64,000 bases of DNA from Minisyncoccota bacterium (lineage in GTDB: Bacteria; Patescibacteriota; Minisyncoccia; Phycocordibacterales; UBA9973): positions 10,167-74,166 of the forward strand of contig JBAYVZ010000001.1 in assembly GCA_041674285.1 (NCBI GenBank). The letters run 5' to 3'. A program made the translations under genes and the position numbers. Of this stretch, positions 1 through 44,856 are shown piece by piece. Under the pieces are notes generated by a model. The model saw nothing but the letters and a program-made list of their open reading frames with translations. It ran no database searches and was not told the DNA's origin. How positions within the stretch are numbered: the first letter of the stretch is position 1; each line of letters starts with the position of its first letter.

Positions 1-1337
1 TATCTAATGGTAATATTGGTATCGGTACAGGATCTTCAAATCCTGGTCAGCCATTGGATATCTGGGGTTCATCTCCAAAAGTCAGATTGAACAACACTGC
101 GACTTCTCAGCCAAACGTATTCATGTTTGCTCGATCTGGTTCTACAAAAGCTACATGGGGTCTAGCTACTGCTTCTAATCAGATCATCACTGGATCTGTA
201 GTAGACGATTCTGTTATCTCTACTGTTGGCAGTATATATCTTGCAGCAGGTAATGTGACATCAGCGTCTCATCTATCTGTGAATACTTCAGGCTATGTAG
301 GTATCGGTACAAATTCTGCAAGTACAAAATTTGAAATAGGTACTTCTGATCTAGGTGATGGTGTCGCTGGTCCAGTTATTACACTAGGTAGGAATAGTAA
401 TGTTACAAATACAGGTGCTGGATCTATCAATTTCTTGAGCAAGGGTGGTACAGCAGGATATGTATGGCAAGACGCCGCAGGTAATCTACGCATTCATACA
501 TCATCACCAAGCAATGCAAATGATACAGCCGGTACAGTAGTCGGAGCACAGACTTCTACTCGTGAGACAAAGCAGGACATCGCAGATTACACAGATTATA
601 ATGCAGCATTGTCTATGATAGTAGATGCACCACTGCATACATTCAAGTACAAGAAGGAGGTTGCTGGTTACGGAGCAGATTCACCACTAGCCAAGACTCG
701 TATCGGATATATCGCAGACGAGGTAGATCCTGCATTCATGGTGGGTAATGTCATCGATCAAGTTTCAGTGAATGGTATTCTCATGGCTTCAGTAAAAGCT
801 ATGAACCTAAAAGTTCAAAACTTAGAAGCTCTAATATCTCAAAACAACAATAATGTTTCTTCTCTGATGTCTGATTTCTTTGGTGGTGTAGTCACAGATG
901 TATCCGGTACATTAGCGACAATCAAAGACCTAGCTGTGAGTACGTTAAAAGTAGGTAGTCCAGAAAAGAGAACAGGTATCACCATCTACGACGAAGCGAC
1001 AGGGGATCCATATTGTATAAAGGTTGTGAATGGTTCTATGCAGACAATCCCTGGTGAATGTGCGGTAGTATCTGCACCGACACCAGAGAGTCAGACTGCC
1101 GGAGCAGGGAACTCTACTCCAGAGCCTGCATCAGAAGTCACTCCGGAATCTACCCCAGAAGTAACACCTGAGGTGACACCAGAAGTAGTCCCAGAAGAGA
1201 TATCTCCTGAACCTACTCCAGAAATAGCTCCCGAGCCTACTCCCGAAGTAGTACCTGAACCTACCCCAAAAATAACCCCCGAGGTTACACCTGAGCCTAC
1301 TCCAGCCCCAGAATCTACTCCAGAAGCCACAATATAA
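1..1337 (+). CDS. Tail-fibre/endosialidase-like surface fibre protein (5'-truncated by window start) with C-terminal intramolecular chaperone (peptidase S74-like) domain and Pro/Glu/Thr-rich repeat tail
   Basis: Frame open from nt 3 with no upstream stop; the listed start at 54 is TTG. The S74-like block TSTRETKQDIADYTDY...HTFKYK...GYIADEVDPAFMV...VNGILMASVKAMNLKVQNLEALI matches tail-spike autoproteolytic chaperone domains. C-terminus is a TPEVTPEPTPE low-complexity repeat. Confidence 0.6.
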   Translation, partial: SNGNIGIGTGSSNPGQPLDIWGSSPKVRLNNTATSQPNVFMFARSGSTKATWGLATASNQIITGSVVDDSVISTVGSIYLAAGNVTSASHLSVNTSGYVGIGTNSASTKFEIGTSDLGDGVAGPVITLGRNSNVTNTGAGSINFLSKGGTAGYVWQDAAGNLRIHTSSPSNANDTAGTVVGAQTSTRETKQDIADYTDYNAALSMIVDAPLHTFKYKKEVAGYGADSPLAKTRIGYIADEVDPAFMVGNVIDQVSVNGILMASVKAMNLKVQNLEALISQNNNNVSSLMSDFFGGVVTDVSGTLATIKDLAVSTLKVGSPEKRTGITIYDEATGDPYCIKVVNGSMQTIPGECAVVSAPTPESQTAGAGNSTPEPASEVTPESTPEVTPEVTPEVVPEEISPEPTPEIAPEPTPEVVPEPTPKITPEVTPEPTPAPESTPEATI

Positions 1338-1340
1338 TAA

Positions 1341-1365
1341 ATCTTCCACAGGTCCGACCTGTGGA
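1341..1365. repeat. REP-like perfect palindrome cttccacaggtc-c-gacctgtggaag
   Basis: 12-bp arms that are exact reverse complements, GC-rich in an AT-rich context, immediately upstream of the RAYT gene. Confidence 0.8.
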
Positions 1366-1382
1366 AGACATGAAATTTATAT

Positions 1383-2087
1383 ATGTCAATAAGAAAAACA
1401 AATTTAGTATGCAATGAGTTTTATCATATATATAATCGTGGCAATGGTAAGAGTGCGATTTTTTTAGACGATGAAGATTACGATCGTTTTATTAAAATAT
1501 TATATATTTGTAATTCTGAGAATAATTTTAAATTCAGAGATTCAATTACTAGTCTTGGATTAGATGCTTTCGATTTTGAAAGGGGGAATACTCTTGTCGA
1601 TATTTTGGGTTGGGTTTTAATGCCGAATCATTTTCATCTAATTTTAATTTCCCACAGGTCCGACCGGTGGGAAAAAGATTATAATCCAATTACAGAATTT
1701 ATGCGAAAAGTCTCTACTTCATATGCTATGTATTTTAATAAAAAATATAAGCGCACAGGGTCTTTATTTGAAGGTAAATTTAAATCAAGTCACATTAATG
1801 AAGAGAATTATTTTAATTATATTTTTTCGTATGTACATTTAAATCCTATTAAATTAATACAAAAGGATTGGAAAGAAAATGGTATAAGAGATAAAAATAT
1901 AGCAATCAATTATTTAAAAACCTACAAATATTCTAGCTTCTTGGATTATTTTTCTGAGTACAGAAAACAAAGTAAGGTAATAAATAAAATTATATTACCG
2001 GAGCATCTAAAAATTAATCATACTAGAGAATTATTTGACTTTTTTAAGAATTATGTTCCCCACAGGTCGGACCTGTGGGGAAAGTAA
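1383..2087 (+). CDS. IS200/IS605-family Y1 (HUH) transposase of the REP-associated tyrosine transposase (RAYT) type
   Basis: YHIYNRGNGK N-terminal motif, HUH motif LMPNHFHLIL, C-terminal catalytic region KVSTSYAMYFNKKYKRTGSLFEGKFKSSHINEENYFNYIFSYVHLNPIK (RAYT-like GxLW...Y...NP layout). Flanked by REP-like palindromes. Confidence 0.7.
   Translation: MSIRKTNLVCNEFYHIYNRGNGKSAIFLDDEDYDRFIKILYICNSENNFKFRDSITSLGLDAFDFERGNTLVDILGWVLMPNHFHLILISHRSDRWEKDYNPITEFMRKVSTSYAMYFNKKYKRTGSLFEGKFKSSHINEENYFNYIFSYVHLNPIKLIQKDWKENGIRDKNIAINYLKTYKYSSFLDYFSEYRKQSKVINKIILPEHLKINHTRELFDFFKNYVPHRSDLWGK
1649..1675. repeat. REP-like palindrome (one-mismatch copy) inside the RAYT coding sequence
   Basis: ttcccacaggtccgaccggtgggaa has the same core as the flanking palindromes and encodes SHRSDRWEK in-frame between the HUH and Tyr regions. 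Confidence 0.7.
2056..2084. repeat. REP-like perfect palindrome ttccccacaggtc-g-gacctgtggggaa at the 3' end of the RAYT gene
   Basis: Exact 13-bp inverted arms; encodes the C-terminal PHRSDLWGK of the ORF. Confidence 0.8.
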
Positions 2088-2174
2088 GATATGTTTGATT
2101 GGTTGTTTTTGTTTTATTGTAATATAATTAAGATTATAAAATTGGAATAAATTAAAATATTGATTTAAAGATAA

Positions 2175-3509
2175 ATGAAATTTGGTAATAAAAATTTTTA
2201 TATTGGTTTTATAAAAAAAACATTTATAGTTTTCGCTATATTGTTTTTCAGTGTGTCTTTTGCTGATTTCTCAAGTTCTAGTTTCAATCTCGAGAATCCT
2301 CTGAGTGTCACAGAAGGTGGCCAGGCTACTTCCAGTAGTTTTAAGTACTTTGGGTCTACTGGGCAATTGATAGTGGGAGAGAGTAGTAGTACAAATTTCA
2401 AGCAAAATTCTGGATTCATGTATTTCCCATTTGCGACTTCGCCTGTACTGACAGCTACTGCAGGGGATACTACCGTATCGTTATCTTGGACTGCAGCTTC
2501 GGGGGTTTTTGCAAATGTCACTAGCTATGAATTGGGTAGTAGTACTTCTGCTGATTCTGGTTTTGTGTACGTGTCTGTCGGTACTAGTACTTCATCTACA
2601 AAGAGCTCACTTACAAACGGTACGACTTATTATTTCAAGGTTAGATCTTATGCTGCTGGGATACTAGTCAGTGAATCATCTGTAGTCTCATCTACTCCAG
2701 CATCTTCGGATAATGGTGGTTCTGGTGGGGGTGGCGGAGGAGGGGGTGGTGGAAGCAGTAGTGGTGGTACCTCGAATAATGTTAAATTCTCCGGCAGAGC
2801 TTATCCTCGCAGTACTGTGGTGCTACTCAAGGATGCCCAAGTTTTAACTTCGACCCTAGCAGGCAATGATGCCAACTTCACTATAAACATCAATAGCATG
2901 AATGCTGGTAATTATATTTTCTCTGTGTATTCCGAGGATGACAAGGGCAATAGATCTTCACTCCTTACTTTCCCAGTGTCTATTACTGCAGGTGCCAGTA
3001 CCGATATAGGAGGTATATTCATAGCACCGACTATCGCTACAGATAAATCAGAGGTAAAGCAGGGTGACAATATAACTTTCTTTGGTCAGTCTACCCCAAA
3101 TAGTGAGATCACGATTTCTATTCATTCAGAGCAGGAATTATTCGAAAAAACTAATTCAGACAAGGATGGTATATATCTCCGGATGGTAGATTCATCTCCT
3201 TTGGAGGTAGGTAGTCACTCTGCAAAATCAAAATCAGCGATAAATGGAGAGATTAGTTCCTATAGTAAGCCTATAGATTTTGCTGTCAGTGATAAAAATA
3301 TTGAAAATGATTTACTGAAGAAATGCCCTGCAAAAGGAGATCTGAATAATGACTGTAAGGTTAACTTGATTGATTTCTCTATAGCAGCTTTTTGGAATAA
3401 AAAAACACTAACTCAGAGTATTTCTGATAAAGAAAAATTAAAGTTGAACGGAGATGGAAAAATAAATCTGATCGACTTTAGTATCATGGCTTATTATTGG
3501 ACTGGATAA
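2175..3509 (+). CDS. Secreted FN3-domain protein with Gly-rich linker and C-terminal type-I dockerin
   Basis: N-terminal hydrophobic signal/anchor and FN3-like block (TVSLSWTAASG...TTYYFKVRSYAAG). GGSGGGGGGGGGGSSSGG linker. Two dockerin Ca-binding repeats GDLNNDCKVNLIDFSIAAFW and LNGDGKINLIDFSIMAYYW (DxNxDGxVNxxD pattern). Confidence 0.65.
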   Translation: MKFGNKNFYIGFIKKTFIVFAILFFSVSFADFSSSSFNLENPLSVTEGGQATSSSFKYFGSTGQLIVGESSSTNFKQNSGFMYFPFATSPVLTATAGDTTVSLSWTAASGVFANVTSYELGSSTSADSGFVYVSVGTSTSSTKSSLTNGTTYYFKVRSYAAGILVSESSVVSSTPASSDNGGSGGGGGGGGGGSSSGGTSNNVKFSGRAYPRSTVVLLKDAQVLTSTLAGNDANFTININSMNAGNYIFSVYSEDDKGNRSSLLTFPVSITAGASTDIGGIFIAPTIATDKSEVKQGDNITFFGQSTPNSEITISIHSEQELFEKTNSDKDGIYLRMVDSSPLEVGSHSAKSKSAINGEISSYSKPIDFAVSDKNIENDLLKKCPAKGDLNNDCKVNLIDFSIAAFWNKKTLTQSISDKEKLKLNGDGKINLIDFSIMAYYWTG

Positions 3510-3557
3510 TGTGTCGCGCTTTAAAGAATGATTGCGTGACGTGATTTCATTAAATCA

Positions 3558-4403
3558 ATGTATAAAAATTTTACAATTAAATTTATAATATTTTCTTTTT
3601 TACTATCTGTATTTACAAACAGTGTTTTTGCTGCAGATATAAGTATCAAATCTGACAGTAGTGATATAAAAATAGGTGATATCTATAAAGTGTCTATATT
3701 ACTCGATACAAAAAGTGAGTCTGTAAATACTATCGAAGGGGATGTGTCTTACGATAAAGATATGATGGATGTCGTATTCATAGATACATCAGCTTCTTTT
3801 GTAAATCTCTGGGTAGAAAAACCGTCCGTATCTGCTCCTGGGCGTATTCATTTTTCTGGCATGACTCCTGGGGGAGTCTCTGTGCCTGCTGGTGTTGTTT
3901 TTGATATGGTTTTCAAAGCAAAGAAGATAGGATCTTCTACTGTGTCTTTATCTAATATATCCTTGTATATAAACGATGGATTAGGGTCAAAAGCTCAGTC
4001 TAATTTTGATAATTTTACTGTTGTAGTGGGGGAGGGCGATTCTACTCGGGGTGTTTTTGATTTGTTCGATTCAGACAAGGTTTCCCCAGAGATTTTTACC
4101 ATAGAGAGAACTCGTGATGAATCTATCTTTGATGGAAAATATTTCATTGCTTTCAATGCGATAGACAAAGACTCTGGTATATCCAAGACCAGGTCCTGCG
4201 AATTCATGTCTTGTCGTGATGTGGTGAGTCCTACTCTCCTTTCAAATCAAACTCCATTTTATTTTATAAAAGTAATTGCTTTTGATATGAATGGCAATAC
4301 TACTTCTTCATTCTTAATCGCTGATATCGTTTATGTTGCCTTCTTTTCATTTATTATTTTTATTTTTGGTTTATTTTTATTCTATAAAAGTAAAAAGTTG
4401 TAG
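3558..4403 (+). CDS. Cohesin-like domain protein with signal peptide and C-terminal TM anchor
   Basis: Signal peptide, then a beta-sandwich-like region (IKIGDIYKVSILLD...IEGDVSYDKDMMDVVFID...FDMVFKAKKIGSSTVSLSN) resembling cohesin modules. C-terminal hydrophobic helix plus KSKKL stop-transfer. Confidence 0.45.
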   Translation: MYKNFTIKFIIFSFLLSVFTNSVFAADISIKSDSSDIKIGDIYKVSILLDTKSESVNTIEGDVSYDKDMMDVVFIDTSASFVNLWVEKPSVSAPGRIHFSGMTPGGVSVPAGVVFDMVFKAKKIGSSTVSLSNISLYINDGLGSKAQSNFDNFTVVVGEGDSTRGVFDLFDSDKVSPEIFTIERTRDESIFDGKYFIAFNAIDKDSGISKTRSCEFMSCRDVVSPTLLSNQTPFYFIKVIAFDMNGNTTSSFLIADIVYVAFFSFIIFIFGLFLFYKSKKL

Positions 4404-4435
4404 ATATTTATTTTTTAATAAGTTATAATAAATTT

Positions 4436-5950
4436 ATGTCTTTTAAAAATTTTTACAAAATAAATTTAAATAAAAAAATATTATTTTTATTTTTTATTTT
4501 TCTGTTTTCTTTTACTCAAAAAGTTTCTGCTGCAGAGTTAAACCTAATCCCATCTTTTTCTTCTTATGAAGTTGGGGATAATATTAAAGTCAGGGTTACA
4601 TTGTCTAGTTCGACTTCTGTGAATGCTGTGTCTGGAAATATAAAATTTTCTACAGACACTCTGACTATGACATCTGTTACCAAGGGGGGCTCAGTCGTTA
4701 GCTTGTGGGCAGTTGAACCTACATATTCAAATGCATCAGGTACTGTAAATTTTGAAGGTGTCATGCTCTCTGGATATACAGGTTCAGGTGGGACTGTATT
4801 GACTCTGAATTTCAAAGCTAAATCAGCGGGTACTGCATCAGCTAGCTTTTCTTCGTCTTCTGTTTTAGCTAGTGATGGAGAAGGTACAAATGTTTTGTCT
4901 AGATCCGGTAGTACGTCATTTAGGATTAATAAGCCGGCTGAAAAGAAAGTAGAAGAAAAACCAGCTGATAAAACTGATAAAAAAATAGAAACAAAGACTC
5001 TCTCTCCAAAAACTGAGACTACAGAGACTTCAAATACAAAAGTTGATTTAGTTTTGCCTACTATTCAAATACAAAAGATATCTGCAGATGATAGTATTGA
5101 TTCATTTGCTGTATTTAATGTGAACAGTGTGGGGAAGAAATTAAAATCACTATACAAGGTAGAAATCGATGGGGCACCTTATGCATGGGATAATCAGGAT
5201 GGTGGAGTATTTACTACACCTAAGTTGACAAAGGGGGATCACAGGTTGTCTATATCTATGGACACAGTTAACGGAGATATACTCTCAAGTAGTGTCGCTT
5301 TCTCTATCCTCAGTATCCCTGCACCTGTCATCACTGAATATTCTGAGAGTATAAATGAAAATAGTTATATAGTCATTAAAGGTAAGGCTGACCCGGATAC
5401 AGATGTTATATTGGTATTTGATTACAAATTATCAGACACTGGTGAATCTAAAAAATACGAAGCAGTAGCTCGATCAGATGAATATGGAAACTTCACTTAT
5501 TTGTCTGAAAAAGTTAAATCCGGATCTTATGATGTGTCAGCATATTACAAAGTAAAGAGTGGGTTTGATAGTGAAAAGAGTGCACCATTAAAATTGAATG
5601 TAAATTCAGAAAATAAAGTACTCCTATCAAAGGTTACAAATACTTTCTCTGTGGTTATATTGATTGTCGCACTCATTATATTGCTATTAATTGTTGCTAC
5701 TTGGGGGTGGTATAAGTTCCTAAATTACAAGGATAAGCACACAAAAAAGTTGTCCGACAGCAAGATAGTTATAGCAAAAAGTTTTGAGATTCTAGATAAT
5801 GATGTCGATAAACAGATCAAGATATTTAGAAAAATTAAATCTCTCGAGCCTTTGACCAAAGAAGAAAAAGCTTTCTTGAAAGAATTCAAGAGAGACATAC
5901 GGGCAGCAGAAAAAGTGATATCAGATGAAGTAAAGATTCCCAAGAAGTAA
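4436..5950 (+). CDS. Cohesin-like domain protein, membrane-anchored with charged cytoplasmic tail
   Basis: Signal peptide; cohesin-like pattern (NIKVRVTLSS...VSGNIKFSTDTLTMTS...GTVLTLNFKAKSAGTASASF). Second beta-rich domain, TM helix (VVILIVALIILLLIVATWGW), Lys/Glu-rich tail. Confidence 0.5.
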   Translation: MSFKNFYKINLNKKILFLFFIFLFSFTQKVSAAELNLIPSFSSYEVGDNIKVRVTLSSSTSVNAVSGNIKFSTDTLTMTSVTKGGSVVSLWAVEPTYSNASGTVNFEGVMLSGYTGSGGTVLTLNFKAKSAGTASASFSSSSVLASDGEGTNVLSRSGSTSFRINKPAEKKVEEKPADKTDKKIETKTLSPKTETTETSNTKVDLVLPTIQIQKISADDSIDSFAVFNVNSVGKKLKSLYKVEIDGAPYAWDNQDGGVFTTPKLTKGDHRLSISMDTVNGDILSSSVAFSILSIPAPVITEYSESINENSYIVIKGKADPDTDVILVFDYKLSDTGESKKYEAVARSDEYGNFTYLSEKVKSGSYDVSAYYKVKSGFDSEKSAPLKLNVNSENKVLLSKVTNTFSVVILIVALIILLLIVATWGWYKFLNYKDKHTKKLSDSKIVIAKSFEILDNDVDKQIKIFRKIKSLEPLTKEEKAFLKEFKRDIRAAEKVISDEVKIPKK

Positions 5951-38239: not shown

Positions 38240-38936
38240 AGCGCGGACTCATTCTTCTTAGTTTTTCAAAAATAAGAATATTTATAATCGCGACTACCCA
38301 CAGGAAACCAAAGACAGACAGAAAGTTTTCACCGCTTCCTTTCATTATAAAGAAATTGAACAGGCTATGCAAGGTAATTGCGAGTAGTAATCCGATAATC
38401 GCATATCTTTTTTTAAATCTTTTTATGTAAAATGCCAATCCAAATGCGCTACCTATCATACTACTTGCGATAGCATGCAGTAGTGTCGATCCTAGGAATC
38501 GCAAGTTGCCAGTGAGTAGTCCGACAACTGTCCCGTCTACTTGGAGTGGGTTGATCAGAAAGAATACATTTTCAAGTGCAGCGAACCCCAGTGCGGCTGC
38601 GATAAAGTACATAGGGTAGTCTATCGGCTGGTCTATATGTCCACTACCAAATACTACTACTATAACTGCTAGCATCTTTAGAATCTCTTCTATCGCTGCA
38701 AATGCAATTATCTGCCATGTCTTGTCTAGTATCAATGTGGCAGAATATCTCTGTAGCCATATAGCTAGTAGTACCATCACCCCACCGAGCACAAAAGACA
38801 TGATTATCAATCCTGTTGGTTCTTTGTCGTCTCCGTCTTCTTGTCTTAGCCAAAACCATAGCCATAGTATGGCTGGTAGTGCTCCTCCTAGTACTGCATA
38901 TATTAGAGTTTTTGGGTCTGATATAAGATTATCCAT
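38223..38936 (-). CDS. PrsW-family intramembrane protease
   Basis: Motifs AAIEEILKML (EExxK), AALGFAALENVFF and HAIASSMIGSAFG; polytopic. Confidence 0.65.
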   Translation of the reverse strand: MDNLISDPKTLIYAVLGGALPAILWLWFWLRQEDGDDKEPTGLIIMSFVLGGVMVLLAIWLQRYSATLILDKTWQIIAFAAIEEILKMLAVIVVVFGSGHIDQPIDYPMYFIAAALGFAALENVFFLINPLQVDGTVVGLLTGNLRFLGSTLLHAIASSMIGSAFGLAFYIKRFKKRYAIIGLLLAITLHSLFNFFIMKGSGENFLSVFGFLWVVAIINILIFEKLRRMSPRFAQTI

Positions 38937-41139
38937 TATTTATTGTTGGCCACTTTTCTACCATCAATAGGCCTGTGTCTTTATGAATAATAGACCACAA
39001 TTCTTCTGTGACGAATGGCATGAATGGGTGGAGTACTGTTGTTATCTTCTCTAGAGTATTCAATAGGAATTGTGCACGAGCCATTTTCGCACTCTCATCA
39101 TCTCCGTTTAGTATTATTTTGCTTTCCTCAATTATCACATCTGCAAATCGTGTCCATGCATATGCATAGAGCTTTTCTCCGACTAGATAGAATTTGTATT
39201 CATCCATTTCTTTTGTGATCTCAGATATCAGATTGTCTCGCTCTTCGATCAAAGTTTTTTCACTATCTGTATATGCGTCAAACTTTGGATCACATGTGAT
39301 GCCTTCAGTGCTCGATAGGGTAAAGCGCGCGATGTTCCAGAGTTTATTTGCAAAGTGCTTGTATGCTTTTACTTTTTGCATATCAAATTTTGTATCATTA
39401 CCTGGGCCTACACCTACGACGAGTGCCATGCGTAATGCGTCTGTTCCGTATTCGTTTATCACATCTATTGGGTCTATTCCATTGTTTGCAGACTTGCTGA
39501 ATTTCTTACCTTTACTATCACGAACTATCCCATGGAAATAAACAGTATCGAATGGAACTTCATTTAATAGATATTGAGACATGAGGACCATACGAGCAAC
39601 CCAAAATGGCAGGATTTCATATCCCGGCATAACTATTGTAGTAGGATGGTAATTCTTTAAATCTGCAGAATTCATATCTGGCCATCCGAGAGTAGAGAAT
39701 GTCCATAGTCCTGAAGAGAACCAAGTGTCTAGACTATCAGAGTCTTGTTCCCAGCCTTCACCTTCGGGTGCTTCCATATCGCAATAAACTTCATCACCTC
39801 GGTACCATACAGGCACACGGTGTCCGTACCAGATCTGGCGAGATATACACCAGTCGCGAAGATTCGCAATCCAGTGTGAATATATTTTTTCAAATCTATC
39901 TGGTAATACTTTTATTTTGCCATCAACAACAGGTTCAAGCATCAGATCCTTTAAGGTCTTGCCAGTATGTCTTTCTATTGGTTTGTTTACATTTATGAAC
40001 CACTGTAGTTTTGGAATTGGTTCGATGATTGCACCTGTGCGTTCTGCTGTCGATACATTTTGATCAACTTCGACTTCAGATTCCATCAAATTATTATCGC
40101 GTAGCCACTGTGCTACTATCTCACGAGCTTCACCTGTCTTCTTTCCCAGAAGATTTTCACCACCTACTGTCATCTTGGCATATTCATTGATAACTGGTTT
40201 TACCTCCAAGTTATTCTTTTGAGCCATTTCCCAGTCTATCTGACTATCTGCCGGGGTCACTCCGAGGGCTCCAGTACCAAAATCTTTTTCTACATTGTGG
40301 TCTGCGATTATTTTGATTGATAGTGGTACTCCGCAAAAATCAGCCACTTCAAAAGTCTGACCGACATATTGAGTATATCTTTCATCTGCAGGGTTTACAG
40401 CTACTGCCATGTCTCCGACTTTTGTCTCTGGTCGAGTCGTAGATATAGAGATAGGGAAGTCTTTTGAATATTTAAATGTGTATAGTTTTGCTTTTCTTTC
40501 TTCGTAAACTACTTCGTCATCTGATATTACCGTCTGGCCTTTTGGGTCCCAGTTCACAATACGATACCCACGGTAGATCAGACCTTCGTCGTACATTTTC
40601 TTGAATGCAGTGCGTACAGCAAAGTTCCTCTTTTCGTCTAGGGTAAATGCTTCACGAGACCAGTCTATGGATGCACCCATCTTTTTAATCTGAGATACTA
40701 TAGTGTCGTGACTCTCTTGGGCGAATTTGTCTACGCGTTTTAGGAATTCTTCACGGCCTAGATCTGTCTTTCTTTTTCCTTCTTCTTTTTCTAGAATTTT
40801 TTCAACTTTTGATTGTGTGGCGATAGCTGCATGGTCTGTACCAGGGATCCAAAGAGTTTTCTTTCCCTTCATACGATTATACCGAACTAAGACATCTTGC
40901 ATTGTGTCTTCAAAAGCGTGACCTAGGTGTAGTGTACCTGTCACATTTGGAGGAGGTAGGACGATAGAGAAATGTGGAGCGTCGGGTTTTGTGACTCCTT
41001 TTTCTATACAAACATCCGGATTAAAAAATCCACTATCTTGCCATTGCTGGTAAATACGATCCTCAGTATCGGCTGGGTTGTATGGTTGTAATAGCTTTTT
41101 ATCAATATTTGGTTCTTTGTATTCAGGTTTGTCTTGCAT
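38929..41139 (-). CDS. valS: Valyl-tRNA synthetase (short form lacking the C-terminal coiled coil)
   Basis: PPPNVTGTLHLGHA HIGH region, KMSKS variant GKKFSKSANN, editing domain; 736 aa. Confidence 0.9.
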   Translation of the reverse strand: MQDKPEYKEPNIDKKLLQPYNPADTEDRIYQQWQDSGFFNPDVCIEKGVTKPDAPHFSIVLPPPNVTGTLHLGHAFEDTMQDVLVRYNRMKGKKTLWIPGTDHAAIATQSKVEKILEKEEGKRKTDLGREEFLKRVDKFAQESHDTIVSQIKKMGASIDWSREAFTLDEKRNFAVRTAFKKMYDEGLIYRGYRIVNWDPKGQTVISDDEVVYEERKAKLYTFKYSKDFPISISTTRPETKVGDMAVAVNPADERYTQYVGQTFEVADFCGVPLSIKIIADHNVEKDFGTGALGVTPADSQIDWEMAQKNNLEVKPVINEYAKMTVGGENLLGKKTGEAREIVAQWLRDNNLMESEVEVDQNVSTAERTGAIIEPIPKLQWFINVNKPIERHTGKTLKDLMLEPVVDGKIKVLPDRFEKIYSHWIANLRDWCISRQIWYGHRVPVWYRGDEVYCDMEAPEGEGWEQDSDSLDTWFSSGLWTFSTLGWPDMNSADLKNYHPTTIVMPGYEILPFWVARMVLMSQYLLNEVPFDTVYFHGIVRDSKGKKFSKSANNGIDPIDVINEYGTDALRMALVVGVGPGNDTKFDMQKVKAYKHFANKLWNIARFTLSSTEGITCDPKFDAYTDSEKTLIEERDNLISEITKEMDEYKFYLVGEKLYAYAWTRFADVIIEESKIILNGDDESAKMARAQFLLNTLEKITTVLHPFMPFVTEELWSIIHKDTGLLMVEKWPTINNG

Positions 41140-41188
41140 GTATAAAATATAGCATTTTTAAAGCCATCTTTCCAATTATTAAAAACTA

Positions 41189-41216
41189 TTTTGACTTAAT
41201 TTTAAAAAGTGGTAAT
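41189..41216 (+). promoter_or_regulatory. Promoter-like element ttgacttaattttaaaaagtggtaat (copy 1)
   Basis: TTGACT -35, 16-17 nt spacer, TGgTAAT extended -10; identical copy at 41910-41937. Confidence 0.55.
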
Positions 41217-41249
41217 CTGTGAAAAAAAGAAACTTTAAAACAAATAATT

Positions 41250-41840
41250 ATGGAAAATCAAAAACCTAAAATCAACGTCTCAAAGACATCTAATGATTCT
41301 GATTATTCTCTTGGTAGAGCTCTAAATTTTTGTTATGAATATGACAATTATACTAATTCTCTCCAAGCTAGAGTTGATCGCCTCAAGGCTAAAAAACAAG
41401 AAGAAGTTTTTACTGCTTTGATTAATGAAATTAAAAATAAGATGCCTGAAAAATTTAAGAAATTTTTTGAGTTGAATTTTTCTTTTGACTTGCAGTATAA
41501 CCCTAATGATCCAAAACATAATCTTTTCAAGATGATACGTGATCATATGTATGGATTTATCGGAATTACTTTGTACCGTATCGAGACTATCAGTATTAAA
41601 AATTCTGGATTTGTAAATTTAGAAGATTTTTTGAATTCATTGTCACTTTTAAATGATTCACTCGATGGTGTTTTTAAGGTTGGATGTCATCAATCAGATA
41701 TGTCGAAAGAAGAAATTAAAAGAATGCAAATGATTTCTTTGTCTTTTTGGCTCGATAAGCCAGATTATATTAGAGAAATGAATAGAAAATCTATGGATGA
41801 TTTATTTAATGCACAAGAAAAACTTAGTAAAAAAAGTTAG
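41250..41840 (+). CDS. Hypothetical protein (cassette cargo 1)
   Basis: 196-aa ORF between the shared promoter and terminator repeats; no recognisable domain. Confidence 0.4.
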   Translation: MENQKPKINVSKTSNDSDYSLGRALNFCYEYDNYTNSLQARVDRLKAKKQEEVFTALINEIKNKMPEKFKKFFELNFSFDLQYNPNDPKHNLFKMIRDHMYGFIGITLYRIETISIKNSGFVNLEDFLNSLSLLNDSLDGVFKVGCHQSDMSKEEIKRMQMISLSFWLDKPDYIREMNRKSMDDLFNAQEKLSKKS

Positions 41841-41845
41841 GTAAT

Positions 41846-41896
41846 TAAAACCCCAAATTCCCGTTTGCTTTCAGAGATGAAAGTGAACGGGTTTTT
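41846..41896 (+). terminator. Intrinsic terminator (cassette terminator copy 1)
   Basis: aaattcccgtttgctttcagagatgaaagtgaacgggtttttt: nested stem cccgtt/aacggg plus ctttc/gaaag and a T-run. Confidence 0.7.
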
Positions 41897-41909
41897 TATT
41901 TATATTATG

Positions 41910-41937
41910 CTTTGACTTAATTTTAAAAAGTGGTAAT
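41910..41937 (+). promoter_or_regulatory. Promoter-like element (copy 2 of ttgacttaattttaaaaagtggtaat)
   Basis: 27/27 identity with 41190-41216. Confidence 0.55.
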
Positions 41938-41963
41938 GTAAAAAGAAAAACTTAACAAAAGCC

Positions 41964-42788
41964 ATGGAAATAAAACAAAAGATTTTGAAAGAGCCTGTGC
42001 TTATCTCTGGTAAGGATTACTGGGGAAGGTCAGCATGGATTAAATTTTCTCCGTCCGTTCGTTCTGGGTGGTGGTGGAAAACCAAAGATGGGGTGATTCC
42101 TATTAATCACAAAATTGCAGAAAAAAGACGCGGGCAAATATCTCTTTGTTCGGGCTCAGAATCTATCGCAGTATGGGAGCATATAGGTGTTTTGAGATTT
42201 TTAGGATTTGATTGTGTTGAAGTAGAATCATCGCCTTGGGCTCCGTATGATGGATCCGCGCTTATTTACTACGAACACTTGGAGGGTAAATTTGCTGTTA
42301 GTGGCAGCAATATCCCCTGGGTCAGGATAACCGAAGATGTAAAGAGTGCGTATGATCCAAATAAGAGAGATGGTTATGTGAAGATCAGTCCTGTATTGTC
42401 TGATGGAAATGAAGTTGCTGATTTATGCTTGAGTGTTGAGGCAGGATGGTCTCCTCTCCCGAGCATAAATAGAACTGTGTTTGCTTCTGATCAGGATTAT
42501 CTATTAAGTATCTTGGGTGTAAAAGCCCAGGGCTATCCTCATTATCTTTATAATGTTGCAAAAGTTGCATCAAAACTTGGCTACCCTCATTTCAAGGAGC
42601 TAACATGGTTGGAAGATCATGGGCCAGAAAAAACCGCTGAACTATTTTTTAGCCATCGTGTTCTGGATTTGTTGGGATGCATGAGTTTGTGTCACCATGA
42701 ATACTTGCCTGTTGGTCATGTCGAGTCTCGTTTTGCTGGTCACGAAGTAGACCTCAGCGCAGTAAAAAAGTGTTTTGTATATTTATAA
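41964..42788 (+). CDS. LpxC-family (UDP-3-O-acyl-GlcNAc deacetylase-like) zinc deacetylase homologue
   Basis: VWEHIGVLRFLGFDCVEVESSPWAPYDGSALIY parallels the LpxC motif TVEHL.AL.G.GIDN..IE....E.PImDGSA. C-terminal HRVLDLLGCMSL parallels the LpxC HxxxD zinc motif (HKxLDxxGDL). Confidence 0.55.
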   Translation: MEIKQKILKEPVLISGKDYWGRSAWIKFSPSVRSGWWWKTKDGVIPINHKIAEKRRGQISLCSGSESIAVWEHIGVLRFLGFDCVEVESSPWAPYDGSALIYYEHLEGKFAVSGSNIPWVRITEDVKSAYDPNKRDGYVKISPVLSDGNEVADLCLSVEAGWSPLPSINRTVFASDQDYLLSILGVKAQGYPHYLYNVAKVASKLGYPHFKELTWLEDHGPEKTAELFFSHRVLDLLGCMSLCHHEYLPVGHVESRFAGHEVDLSAVKKCFVYL

Positions 42789-42794
42789 AGTCGT

Positions 42795-42852
42795 TTTAGA
42801 GCCCTAAATTCCCGTTTGCTTTCAGAGATGAAAGTGAGCGGGATTTTTTTAT
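42795..42852. terminator. Intrinsic terminator (cassette terminator copy 2; also terminates convergent tsaD)
   Basis: ctaaattcccgtttgctttcagagatgaaagtgagcgggattttttt: 2 mismatches versus copy 1. Confidence 0.7.
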
Positions 42853-44022
42853 TGGTTTTTTAAGATAATTAAAGTATCCTGCGATGGCTATCATCAGGCC
42901 GTTGTCAGTAGAAAGTTTTTTTGTAGGGAAGTATACTTTAATTTTTAATTTTTCATTTTTAATTTTTAAACCTACTTTCTCTCTCAATACTTTTTGTAAA
43001 TGCGTATTTGCAGATACTCCACCACCCACTATCAGCGTCTGGATTTTATATTTTTCTATGGCCTTGATTGTCTTGTATGTCAGGACTTCTACTATTGAAT
43101 CTTCTACTTCACAAGCTATTTCTTTTTTTTGTTCATCATTTATATCTCCAAGGTCGCGTATCAAATACAGCACTGCAGTCTTGAGTCCAGAGAATGAAAA
43201 ATCAAAATCTCCAGAGTGTATCATTGGGCGAGGTAATTTAATTTTATTCTCCTCTTGAGGAGTACCCGCCAATGCGGGGGAGGTGGATGTATTTGAATTC
43301 TTTCGATGCTCTGCTGCCAATTTAGAAATCTCTGGTCCGCCGGGGTACGGCAGGGATAGCATGCGGGCTACCTTATCAAAAGCTTCACCTGCTGCATCGT
43401 CACGAGTTTGACCGATGACTTTGTATTTGCCGAAATCTTTCATGAGGACTAGCTCTGTATGTCCACCAGATACGAGCAGAGAAAGAGCAGGGAACTGTAT
43501 CTCTGGAATTTTCCCCTCATCTGTCATCAATATAGATAATATATGCCCCTCCATGTGGTTCACAGGTAGTAGTGGGAGATCCCATGCGATAGACAGTGCT
43601 TTTGCAAAGCTGATACCTACCCATAGTGCTGGCTCGAGGCCTGGACCTACTGTCACAGCTATGGCATCTATCTTGGGCTTGGCTATCTTAGATATGGAAT
43701 TTATGAATGTTTCTGGTAAGTCATTTTCTCTTGAGAGTATCTCTTTTATTTTTACCTCATCAATTTTTAATTTTTCATTTTTAATTTTTAATTTAAATAG
43801 TCCTGCATCTTTGAGTGCTTTTTCAAAAACGGGTACGATATTCTTGCCGTGCTCGCGCTTTGCCATCATAGGGAATACGCCACCATAGTTCGTATGGATG
43901 GGTTGGGATTGTATTGCATTTGCCATCATGTGCAGACAGTGACTACTCTTTCCACGCTTCCGCGCGTCGAGTATCGCTATTCCTGTATCGTCGCAAGATG
44001 TTTCTATTGCTAGTATCTTCAT
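42796..44022 (-). CDS. tsaD: tRNA N6-adenosine threonylcarbamoyltransferase TsaD (Kae1/Gcp family) with Lys-rich insertions
   Basis: N-terminal MKILAIETSCDDTGIAILD, ...GGVFPMMAKREH..., ...LLVSGGHTELVLM..., C-terminal ...GGGVSANTHLQ...; 408 aa versus about 340 typical. Confidence 0.9.
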   Translation of the reverse strand: MKILAIETSCDDTGIAILDARKRGKSSHCLHMMANAIQSQPIHTNYGGVFPMMAKREHGKNIVPVFEKALKDAGLFKLKIKNEKLKIDEVKIKEILSRENDLPETFINSISKIAKPKIDAIAVTVGPGLEPALWVGISFAKALSIAWDLPLLPVNHMEGHILSILMTDEGKIPEIQFPALSLLVSGGHTELVLMKDFGKYKVIGQTRDDAAGEAFDKVARMLSLPYPGGPEISKLAAEHRKNSNTSTSPALAGTPQEENKIKLPRPMIHSGDFDFSFSGLKTAVLYLIRDLGDINDEQKKEIACEVEDSIVEVLTYKTIKAIEKYKIQTLIVGGGVSANTHLQKVLREKVGLKIKNEKLKIKVYFPTKKLSTDNGLMIAIAGYFNYLKKPIKKSRSLSSLKANGNLGL

Positions 44023-44128
44023 AATATTAATTATACTTTGAATTAAAATTTAAATTACCACTTCCCGCCCCGTAGGAAGTACTCTTTCCTTTGGGGTCGC
44101 AAGAGGTCTCTATCGCTAGAATCTTCAT
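43990..44128. repeat. 33-bp duplication of the tsaD start region, bracketing a 73-bp hairpin-containing insert
   Basis: gtcgcaagatgtttctattgctagtatcttcat (43990-44022) versus gtcgcaagaggtctctatcgctagaatcttcat (44096-44128). The 4 mismatches are all synonymous for MKILAIETSCD. The insert contains attaccacttcccgccccgtagg and the stem cccc/ggaa...ttcc/gggg. Confidence 0.75.
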
Positions 44129-44208
44129 TTTTAGAATATAGCAAATATAAGCCTTTTTGACTATACTTTATAAATATGTTATTTTAAATAAAAGAAAATT
44201 AATTTATC

Positions 44209-44790
44209 ATGAAAAAACATTTAATCACAATTGCGGGGAATAATGGAAGTGGTAAATCAACTACTTCAAAAAAAATAGCAAACACTCTAGGTTATACTCA
44301 TAAATCAACCGGAGATTTTATGCGATCTATAGCACTAGAAAAAGGTGTGACATTACAAGAATTGGGTAGTATTGCAGAAAAAGATCCAACTATAGACAAA
44401 ATGTTGGATGATTCAAATCTTGAAATTGGAAAGATGGACAATGTTGTTCTCGATTCACGTTTAGGGTTTTATTTTATACCGGATTCATTTAAAGTTTTTT
44501 TGAAGTGTGATTCAAAAATTGCGGCTACTCGATTTCTTAAATCAGCAGTAGAAAATCCAGACAGATTGAATGAAAATTTATCTAAGTCAGAAGATGTATC
44601 AGACATAGCTCGCTCATTTGATATCCGTTTGGAGAGTGAGAAAAAAAGATATGATGATTTGTATGGGATAAAAGATCATACAGATACATCAAATTTTGAT
44701 CTAGTTATTGATACGAGCCTTCCCGAGAACTCAAAAGAAAGAGTTCCACAAATTATTATTGAGGTCTACAATCAGTGGCTTAATAAGTAA
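44209..44790 (+). CDS. P-loop nucleoside monophosphate kinase-like protein (cytidylate-kinase-like)
   Basis: ITIAGNNGSGKSTTSKKIA Walker A at the N-terminus; 193 aa; family-level call only. Confidence 0.45.
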   Translation: MKKHLITIAGNNGSGKSTTSKKIANTLGYTHKSTGDFMRSIALEKGVTLQELGSIAEKDPTIDKMLDDSNLEIGKMDNVVLDSRLGFYFIPDSFKVFLKCDSKIAATRFLKSAVENPDRLNENLSKSEDVSDIARSFDIRLESEKKRYDDLYGIKDHTDTSNFDLVIDTSLPENSKERVPQIIIEVYNQWLNK

Positions 44791-44856
44791 TTTAAAGAAA
44801 AAAAGCTTCCTTTTAGGGGGCTTTTTTTTATTCCACAAAGGGTTTATAGTATATAT

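Follow-up and report, generated by a model that had tools for sequence, protein, structure and literature searches.

A Strain-Variable Gene Slot between valS and tsaD in Paceibacterota, with Cassettes Ending in a Terminator-like Copy of the tsaD 3′ End

The interval between valS and tsaD in a 64-kb stretch of DNA from a Paceibacterota metagenome-assembled genome (MAG), hereafter the window, carries two unrelated genes, each preceded by the same promoter-like box (P) and followed by the same terminator-like unit (T). Both repeats are conserved in related genomes, and T is the 3′ end of tsaD itself: one copy lies within the gene, and the other is an orphan duplicate of that end. The genes held between the repeats differ among relatives, an insertion or deletion (indel) that distinguishes the window from its closest relative is bounded exactly by two T copies, and adjacent genes at the locus have mosaic phylogenies. 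It appears probable that this interval is a strain-variable slot of one clade of Candidatus Paceibacterota, a hotspot resembling the minimal mobile elements (MMEs), in which the repeated T and P modules would provide portable homology for recombination.

The valS–tsaD Slot and Its Occupants

The slot is flanked on its left by valS, which encodes a 736-aa valyl-tRNA synthetase (38929-41139, minus strand; Pfam tRNA-synt_1, 2e-125, and Anticodon_1), and on its right by tsaD (42796-44022, minus strand; 408 aa; Pfam TsaD, 2e-80). The two cargo genes, both on the plus strand, are ORF196 (41250-41840), a 196-aa open reading frame (ORF) without a family that has orthologues in the same slot of relatives, and the gene for a 274-aa LpxC-fold zinc deacetylase homologue (LpxC-like; 41964-42788), assigned from Pfam and fold. 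Their loci are tagged WC089_00210 and WC089_00215, and both proteins match a Candidatus Paceibacterota MAG exactly. The comparison set comprises about 10 related Paceibacterota loci, all sequences being metagenome assemblies, and the relatives' contigs (L numbers below) were gathered through homologues of the LpxC-like protein, through a scan for a 28-nt core of T and through homologues of TsaD. The gene order murE–kinase–tsaD–slot–valS–prsW–hsp20 is common to all relatives examined; valS and tsaD flank the slot in the window, L001, L007, L008, L010, L011, L012, L014 and L019, and also in L015, for which only the start of valS is present.

The content of the slot is variable: five or more unrelated cargo families occur, combined into eight or more arrangements that each hold one to three genes. 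The LpxC-like gene is the sole occupant in L001, as are a member of the ORF196 family (60% amino acid identity) in L009/L010, a 397-aa AIRS/PurM-like protein in L014, a different AIRS protein in L012 and an unrelated 161-aa ORF in L011. The window has ORF196 followed by LpxC-like, L015 has TM171 followed by LpxC-like, the closest relative, L008, has AIRS followed by ORF196, and L007/L006 have AIRS, TM170 and an ArsA/Get3-like ATPase in a row; the L005 contig begins with T–spacer–P–LpxC-like, and its slot probably holds TM171 and LpxC-like. T lies 3′ of every cargo gene (16 copies in 10 genomes). The original prediction, made from the window alone, had described two unrelated genes wrapped in the same promoter and terminator, and the repeats, the genes and the flanks all confirm this description. 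It had also pointed out that an interval conserved in all relatives would speak for an ancient operon duplication instead of cassettes, and the interval is not conserved in all of them. The idea that the LpxC-like gene is a plain insertion has to be abandoned, given that this gene occupies the L001 slot by itself.

Arrays of several cassettes are joined by a conserved T–spacer–P module that extends into the 5′ untranslated region (UTR), about 120 nt in all. In the window, the 13-nt spacer of this module (ATTTATATTATGC, 41898-41910) is the same as in L007, and the junction at 41845-41958 is 94.8% identical, over 115 nt including the spacer, to L007 5957-6071. The L007 module links AIRS to TM170, and the window module links ORF196 to LpxC-like. 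The T–spacer–P junction is common to relatives whose TsaD is 89–96% identical, and T is kept down to 70% TsaD identity, which does not agree with the recent duplication that had been suggested.

A Terminator-like Unit Written into tsaD

The two T copies, T1 after ORF196 (41845-41900, plus strand) and T2 after LpxC-like (42796-42851, plus strand), are 91% identical over 53 nt (41845-41897 versus 42796-42848) and have an exact common run of 32 nt (41855-41886 and 42806-42837). With up to three mismatches allowed, T has two matches in the window, compared with none in 100 shuffles. The repeats first reported are thus real, while their coordinates were off by 1–2 nt and the reported string 'ctaaatt' fits only the second copy, the first reading 'ccaaatt'. 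Both copies are called terminator-like, with 14–15 pairs, a GAGA loop and then 6–7 T residues: the T1 hairpin spans 41860-41891 and its T-run 41892-41897, and the T2 hairpin spans 42810-42843 and is followed by T7. These hairpins start about 20 nt 3′ of the ORF196 and LpxC-like stop codons. T therefore has the sequence features of a Rho-independent terminator, i.e., a stable stem-loop downstream of a stop codon with a U-run directly 3′ of it, and this U-run is found on the cargo strand and not on the tsaD strand. Consistently, the RNA fold of T1 reaches -21.5 kcal/mol (z-score -6.0) on the plus strand versus -14.9 kcal/mol on the minus strand, and that of T2 reaches -23.4 kcal/mol (z-score -5.4) versus -12.6 kcal/mol. 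The fold is weaker on the tsaD strand because two G·U pairs of the cargo strand become A·C mismatches there. T is thus presumably an intrinsic terminator that serves the slot in one direction and is embedded in tsaD; owing to these same mismatches, it would terminate cargo transcripts without strongly structuring the tsaD mRNA.

The location of T had escaped the original prediction. T2 lies wholly within tsaD, and its reverse complement corresponds to the last 17 codons of the gene (KKSRSLSSLKANGNLGL) and the stop. The TsaD C-terminus, ...LKA.GNL.., is conserved in about 50 Paceibacterota homologues, from which it follows that T is real tsaD coding sequence. In the clade with TsaD at least about 70% identical, the protein ends in ...SRSLSSLKANGNLG[FL] (elsewhere given as ...KKSRSLSSLKANGNLG[FL]), and, within the stem, the SRSLS codons pair with the LKANG codons. 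The left edge of T1 is TTA, the tsaD stop codon in antisense, and its left flank is identical to that of the tsaD-terminal T of L008. Since this antisense stop is also kept on the left of all other T copies, these are orphan duplicates of the tsaD 3′ end.

The 37-nt core of T is identical at 37 of 37 positions in L011, in which TsaD is 70% identical. The mean pairwise identity of the core is 0.915, versus 0.775 for the rest of tsaD, and only 2 of 227 other 37-nt tsaD windows are equally conserved. A double constraint, exerted on both the codons and the stem, can explain this conservation. The hairpin appears to decay where no cargo depends on it, as suggested by L013, in which the tsaD stop lies 45 nt from a valS-promoter-like sequence and the hairpin is degenerate (-11 kcal/mol, z-score -0.7), and by L019, in which the slot has a separate terminator of its own and the tsaD end is not a hairpin. 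The reading of L013 as an empty slot is doubtful, because the ORF that follows the valS-promoter-like sequence is something other than valS, and the contig breaks off after another 127 nt.

The tsaD-terminal T of L008 (2695-2731, minus strand) has the loop ATTT instead of GAGA, together with several changes in the arms. These changes alter TsaD (..SPPLSKLKANGNLGF), yet the hairpin stays stable at -19.6 kcal/mol, so that the stem is maintained even when the peptide changes. As for L019 (TsaD 71% identical), its slot (2364-2871) measures 508 nt. The only ORFs in it are short and broken (31-51 aa), and it has a promoter that resembles the one 5′ of AIRS in L008 and its own hairpin terminator just outside tsaD. 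This slot may hold a decayed cargo gene and reflect the state before the terminator moved into tsaD.

A Promoter-like Box Common to Several Cargo Families

P (TTTGACTTAATTTTAAAAAGTGGTAAT) occurs at 41190-41216 and 41911-41937 with 27 of 27 positions identical; with up to three mismatches allowed, it has two matches in the window versus none in 100 shuffles. A weaker likeness between the two copies extends about 25 nt into the 5′UTRs (39 nt at 87%). P1 and its ORF196-type 5′UTR cover 41190-41249, and P2 and its GTAAAAAGAAAAAC-type 5′UTR cover 41911-41963, both on the plus strand. The layout of the box comprises TTGACT (-35, 5/6), a 16-nt spacer that ends in TGG, which would supply the TG of an extended -10 element, and TAATCT or TAATGT (-10, 3/6).

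The box is kept 5′ of cargo ORFs in six genomes, and the adjoining spacers vary. P with the ORF196 type of UTR also precedes the ORF196 orthologue in L008 and, with four mismatches, in L010, while the P2 type of box and UTR precedes the LpxC-like gene in L001, L005 and L015 and TM170 in L007 and L015. P is thus found upstream of ORF196, LpxC-like and TM170 in every position, AIRS and ArsA-like having other upstream sequences; a promoter-like box with a conserved -35 and an extended -10 precedes each cassette. P can be inferred to be a sigma-70-like promoter with its 5′UTR, used by three of the five cargo families.

To the left of P1, the valS-proximal intergenic sequence (tataaaatatagcatttttaaagcc...ccaattatta, 41140-41189), delimited by alignment with relatives, holds a valS promoter-like motif, TGcTATATT, on the minus strand and is kept in relatives as far as the cassette start. 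An Rfam scan of 40500-44500 at E <= 1 matched no family, and T and the P/UTR are therefore not known RNA elements.

Signs of Turnover and Recombination

The window and L008 are 95.5% identical over hsp20–prsW–valS and over the ORF196 cassette. A segment of 951 bp from T1 to T2 (spacer–P–LpxC-like–T) is found in the window only; T1 and T2 both align to the single T of L008, and the indel of the LpxC-like cassette is thus bounded exactly by the two T copies. L008 has its own segment, the 1330-bp AIRS segment, which is missing from the window. Beyond the slot, the identity to L008 falls to 91.6% in tsaD and 92.9% in murE, and this step sits at the slot.

Protein identities give a mosaic picture. 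For ValS, the window has 99% identity to L008 and 83% to L007, which in turn has 94% to L001/L012/L014. For TsaD, the identity of the window to L007 is 96%, and for AIRS, L008 has 79% identity to L014 and 67% to L007. It follows that three adjacent genes, ValS, TsaD and AIRS, have three different histories. Likewise, the junction module of the window is of the L007 type, and its LpxC-like ORF is nearest to those of L015/L005. The left flank of T goes with the upstream cargo, the window and L008 having an identical flank after ORF196, and the right part of T goes with what follows downstream. Altogether, the mosaic identities, the mismatch between junction and cargo and the pattern of the T flanks indicate probable recombination within and around T and P. 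By sliding-window identity, the T2 region of the window is closest to L001 (0.94), and the rest of its tsaD is closest to L008/L007.

The 5′ end of tsaD in the window carries an insertion of about 106 bp (44023-44128) that is specific to it. It comprises 73 foreign nt with a CCCC...GGGG hairpin, after which the first 11 tsaD codons (MKILAIETSCD) appear a second time, in a copy that loses its register thereafter. With 0-1 mismatch to the L008 and L015 alleles, this remnant is a better fit to them than the functional start, which has 4. The insertion looks like the scar of an illegitimate join, which argues that such joins happen at the locus. A single-event import of spacer–P–LpxC-like–T–tsaD, in which T would be the homologous anchor and an illegitimate join would have occurred at the tsaD 5′ end, would explain this scar. 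This model lacks specific support, since murE, which lies past the scar, has diverged from L008 (92.9%) to the same degree as tsaD (91.6%).

Two further observations concern tsaD and its other neighbour. The gene between tsaD and murE is Cmk-like in the window (44157-44830; ORF 44209-44790) and a guanylate kinase in L006, L007 and L008 (L007 8841-9467; L008 860-1486), and no gmk is present elsewhere in the window. The flanks of this swap are 93-97% identical, the match reaching to about 12 nt 5′ of the ATG on one side and resuming about 5 nt 3′ of the stop on the other, so that the exchanged genes sit between an unchanged promoter, TTGACT-N17-TATTTT, and an unchanged terminator, GCTTCCTTTTAGGGGGC followed by T8. 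Within tsaD itself, an exact 30-nt direct repeat occurs at 42940-42969 and 43762-43791, both copies encoding LKIKNEKLKI at different sites of the protein. At least the 3′-proximal copy (KVGLKIKNEKLKI) is present in L006, L007, L008 and L015, and it is absent from L001, L010, L011 and L012, which suggests an intragenic copy or conversion event in a subclade.

The Cargo Genes

ORF196 has a GC content of 28% (z-score -2.1 relative to the window genes), among the lowest in the window. Its orthologues in the same slot are 94% identical in amino acids in L008 and 60% in L009/L010. One orthologue falls in the same 90% cluster, and six distant homologues are 24-31% identical; the genomic context of one of them, P0008 (29% identical), is uninformative and consists of short contigs of small unknown genes. 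The AlphaFold2 (AF2) model, with a predicted local distance difference test (pLDDT) score of 82, has a long helix and a small alpha/beta domain, and ORF196 found no match in Pfam, NCBIfam, PADLOC or, by Foldseek, the PDB.

The second protein is related to LpxC through its fold. Its match to Pfam LpxC is marginal (27.8 bits) and covers only the C-terminal part, and phmmer against PDB sequences found no LpxC. The fold search alone did: starting from a confident AF2 model built with its relatives (pLDDT 86.8), the best 50 PDB matches of Foldseek are all LpxC (TM-score 0.72-0.77, 15-18% identity; E 1e-15 for TM-scores of 0.74-0.77). Only five relatives were found in 5.8 billion proteins. E72, H73, H231, D235 and H260 are invariant in six LpxC-like homologues, and we take E72-H73, H231...D235 and H260 to correspond to the catalytic and zinc-binding residues of LpxC. 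Judging by the model, the label 'LpxC-like' proposed from the start is correct at the fold level. A full-length LpxC-fold deacetylase with conserved catalytic residues is encoded here by a bacterium of the Candidate Phyla Radiation (CPR), a group that is not known to make lipid A. Homologues that are 40% identical are encoded in L002 (8432-9253, mraZ/aspS context) and L004 (3760-4611, frr/holB context), without T or P.

ORF196 and LpxC-like are unrelated (BLASTP E 0.14; different folds), and the array is therefore not a tandem duplication of paralogous units. PADLOC, run on seven cargo proteins, returned no defence-system match and only one weak P-loop match.

Models for Cassette Turnover

In the model that we favour, and hold to be the probable one, each occupant of the slot would be a self-contained unit, transcribed rightward and provided with the terminator T. 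Cassettes would be deleted, inserted and exchanged by ordinary homologous recombination after the uptake of DNA from related strains, with crossovers that join one copy of T, or of P/UTR, to another or that fall within valS or tsaD. Occasional illegitimate joins would make new junctions. It has been reported that com genes are conserved across CPR phyla and that Saccharibacteria undergo ComEC-dependent natural transformation with homologous recombination (PMC10633639). By analogy, DNA uptake and recombination in CPR bacteria are plausible.

Several points weigh against this model. The homology offered by T (about 32-55 nt) and by P/UTR (about 27-50 nt) is little for RecA-dependent exchange, and too few differences exist inside T to place a crossover breakpoint. 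Homologous recombination accounts for the shuffling of cassettes and not for the origin of unrelated ORFs between the same P/UTR and T, whose boundaries lie about 10 nt from the start and stop codons. Promoter and terminator activities are read from the sequence only, and P is missed by a consensus promoter scan because its weak -10 hexamer (3/6) is under the scan threshold. The data are metagenome assemblies, and the searches of this genome for T, P and a recombinase were confined to the window. Finally, all arrangements are colinear with one order, i.e., AIRS, then TM170 or ORF196, then LpxC-like or ArsA-like, which allows a history of deletions only.

This last point is the basis of the strongest alternative, vertical descent with differential loss, to which we give a low but real probability. 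A longer ancestral array (AIRS, TM170, ORF196, LpxC-like and ArsA-like) with repeated P and T would have lost different genes in different lineages, by deletion and without any transfer. All eight arrangements are compatible with it, recombination between T copies yields exactly the observed indel of the LpxC-like cassette, and cargo divergence roughly scales with that of the host, ORF196 being 94% identical at 96% TsaD identity and 60% at 84%. However, ValS, TsaD and AIRS, although adjacent, give three tree topologies, the divergence from L008 rises abruptly at the slot, from 4.5% on one side to 7-8% on the other, and the junction module and the LpxC-like ORF of the window have different closest relatives. 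Moreover, no genome was seen with more than three cassettes, and the closest pair (ValS 99%) already differs by two indels and one gene replacement. Deletion of the first cassette would also require recombination between the sequence upstream of AIRS (P′) and P, which have only TTTGAC in common.

A dedicated, integron-like mechanism is less probable still, and we regard it as doubtful. In this scenario, T would be a recombination site, its tsaD-terminal copy the attachment site, and a recombinase encoded elsewhere would move single-gene cassettes. The resemblance to integron arrays, and to the attC clusters without integrase known as CALINs, is real: unrelated, co-oriented, single-gene cassettes are each followed by the same imperfect palindromic unit, and a cassette indel is bounded exactly by the repeat. 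The duplication of a gene 3′ end is, in addition, what integration into the end of a gene classically leaves behind, the left flank of T goes with the upstream cargo and its right part with the downstream context, and the internal, non-coding T copies are nearly identical, loop included. However, no recombinase gene lies beside the array in about 10 loci, where the neighbours are always valS, prsW, hsp20, tsaD, the kinase and murE (an adjacent intI is not required of a CALIN), and no phage integrase or other recombinase was found among the 20 further proteins of the window to which that search was limited. This screen also brought to light, at 54-5950, a cluster of large secreted-type proteins with cohesin, dockerin, Big_6/fn3 and Peptidase_S74 domains, which forms a cellulosome-like adhesion module.

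Nor does T have the architecture of attC. A search by regular expression, over both strands of T1, of T2 and of the entire interval, found no R''(RYYYAAC)/R'(GTTRRRY) core-site pair, and T is a unit of 53-56 nt with a short, perfect and uninterrupted 14-bp stem on the cargo strand, whereas attC sites are 57-141 nt long and have extrahelical bases. The slot cassettes carry promoter-like boxes of their own, whereas integron cassettes are mostly promoterless and expressed from the common Pc, and the slot repeat doubles as terminator and essential-gene codons, at a single locus and with one to three cassettes. The conservation of T is already accounted for by this double duty, and T decays where no cargo needs a terminator. 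It would thus be a long shot to see in T the site of an undescribed CPR cassette system of integron-like logic, with promoter-bearing cassettes, a site that doubles as terminator and tsaD 3′ coding end, and a recombinase that is encoded elsewhere or performs a housekeeping function.

T and P do not appear to be genome-wide cassette signals: in everything searched, they were found at the valS–tsaD slot only. Outside the slot, there is no T or P in the window or in about 100 kb of related loci; with two copies each in 64 kb, both in the slot, they do not form a dispersed repeat element of the repetitive extragenic palindromic (REP) or miniature inverted-repeat transposable element (MITE) kind. 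Among 185,579 species genomes (GTDB, one per species), the P pattern had one match, in L008, and a scan of Joint Genome Institute (JGI) metagenomes for the 28-nt T core retrieved two contigs, both at the valS–tsaD locus. The T and P patterns are absent from the viral contigs of IMG/VR, and the whole region has no blastn match in plasmid or phage collections.

Finally, a private, recent tandem duplication of one regulatory unit, or an assembly chimera formed at short repeats of co-occurring strains, is highly improbable: P1 and P2 are identical at 27 of 27 positions, whereas the two P copies of L015 differ at three, and all sequences are metagenome assemblies, but the same modules recur in independent assemblies (P–ORF196–T in L008, an NCBI MAG; T–spacer–P–LpxC-like in L005 and L015, from two Logan runs; ArsA-like–T–tsaD in L006 and L007), the exact repeats, at 27 and 32 nt, do not reach the length of usual final assembly k-mers, and the window lies within a 230-kb contig.

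Comparison with Known Systems

MMEs were reportedly described in Neisseria by Saunders and Snyder in 2002 and by Snyder et al. in 2007. As in these elements, the slot has two conserved genes that flank strain-variable, whole-gene cassettes without mobility genes. The exchange of MMEs is attributed to transformation and homologous recombination, which, for the slot described here, is deduced from sequence comparison and not demonstrated. The slot also differs from them in that every cassette ends in a copy of one terminator, which corresponds in antisense to the 3′ coding end of the flanking gene, several cassettes have a common promoter and 5′UTR, cassettes are stacked through a conserved T–spacer–P junction, and the host is a CPR bacterium. 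The definition of the MME (PMC3082526) fits the slot, where distinct whole-gene cassettes lie between conserved genes.

The orphan copies of the tsaD end recall another kind of array. The effector-immunity arrays of the V. cholerae type VI secretion system (T6SS) and the orphan 3′ ends of Rhs and contact-dependent inhibition (CDI) genes have been proposed to be products of sequential displacement, attributed to homology-facilitated illegitimate recombination (PMC5361080). On this account, a new module would enter beside a conserved gene, joined through homology on one side and illegitimately on the other, leaving orphan gene 3′ copies and mosaic arrays, which resembles the situation in the slot. 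The orphan piece in the slot is, however, only about 55 nt long and is reused as a terminator, and the cargo does not consist of toxin-immunity pairs, PADLOC giving no defence match. The same junction spacer is found in different slot arrays, an argument that the junction was formed once and was shuffled afterwards. T also resembles the Rho-independent terminators of convergent genes, with a stem-loop and a U-run where two convergent genes meet, but differs from them by lying wholly inside the coding sequence of one partner and by being strong in one direction only.

The cassette idea, initially drawn from the repeats in the window, appears largely right once three points are corrected: what was called the terminator coincides with the end of tsaD, the old arrangement is confined to one locus, and no dedicated mobility machinery is visible. 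Its modular side is borne out by the different cargo found with the same P and T in the slot of relatives; neither a mobility enzyme nor an integron-type site was found in the loci and window proteins searched.

Implications for Gene Turnover in CPR Bacteria

Little is known about gene gain and loss in CPR/Patescibacteria, which have genomes of about 1 Mb and symbiotic lifestyles. The slot is a PCR-addressable hotspot between two universal genes, in which gene content turns over faster than 4-5% nucleotide divergence accumulates. It also illustrates genome economy, in that a putative strand-specific terminator is contained in the last 17 codons of an essential gene and serves again to delimit each cassette.

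Should the repeats function as portable homology, the slot would be a natural expression scaffold that combines a fixed promoter, a swappable ORF and a fixed terminator. If a dedicated recombinase were involved instead, it could represent a new class of cassette system, and, were T the site of such a system, the ORF-precise exchange of the Gmk and Cmk-like genes would hint at a more general replacement of ORFs between fixed expression signals. The origin of the cassettes poses a problem that parallels the open question of the origin of integron cassettes. From a practical standpoint, the slot could serve as a candidate neutral integration site for Paceibacterota genetics.

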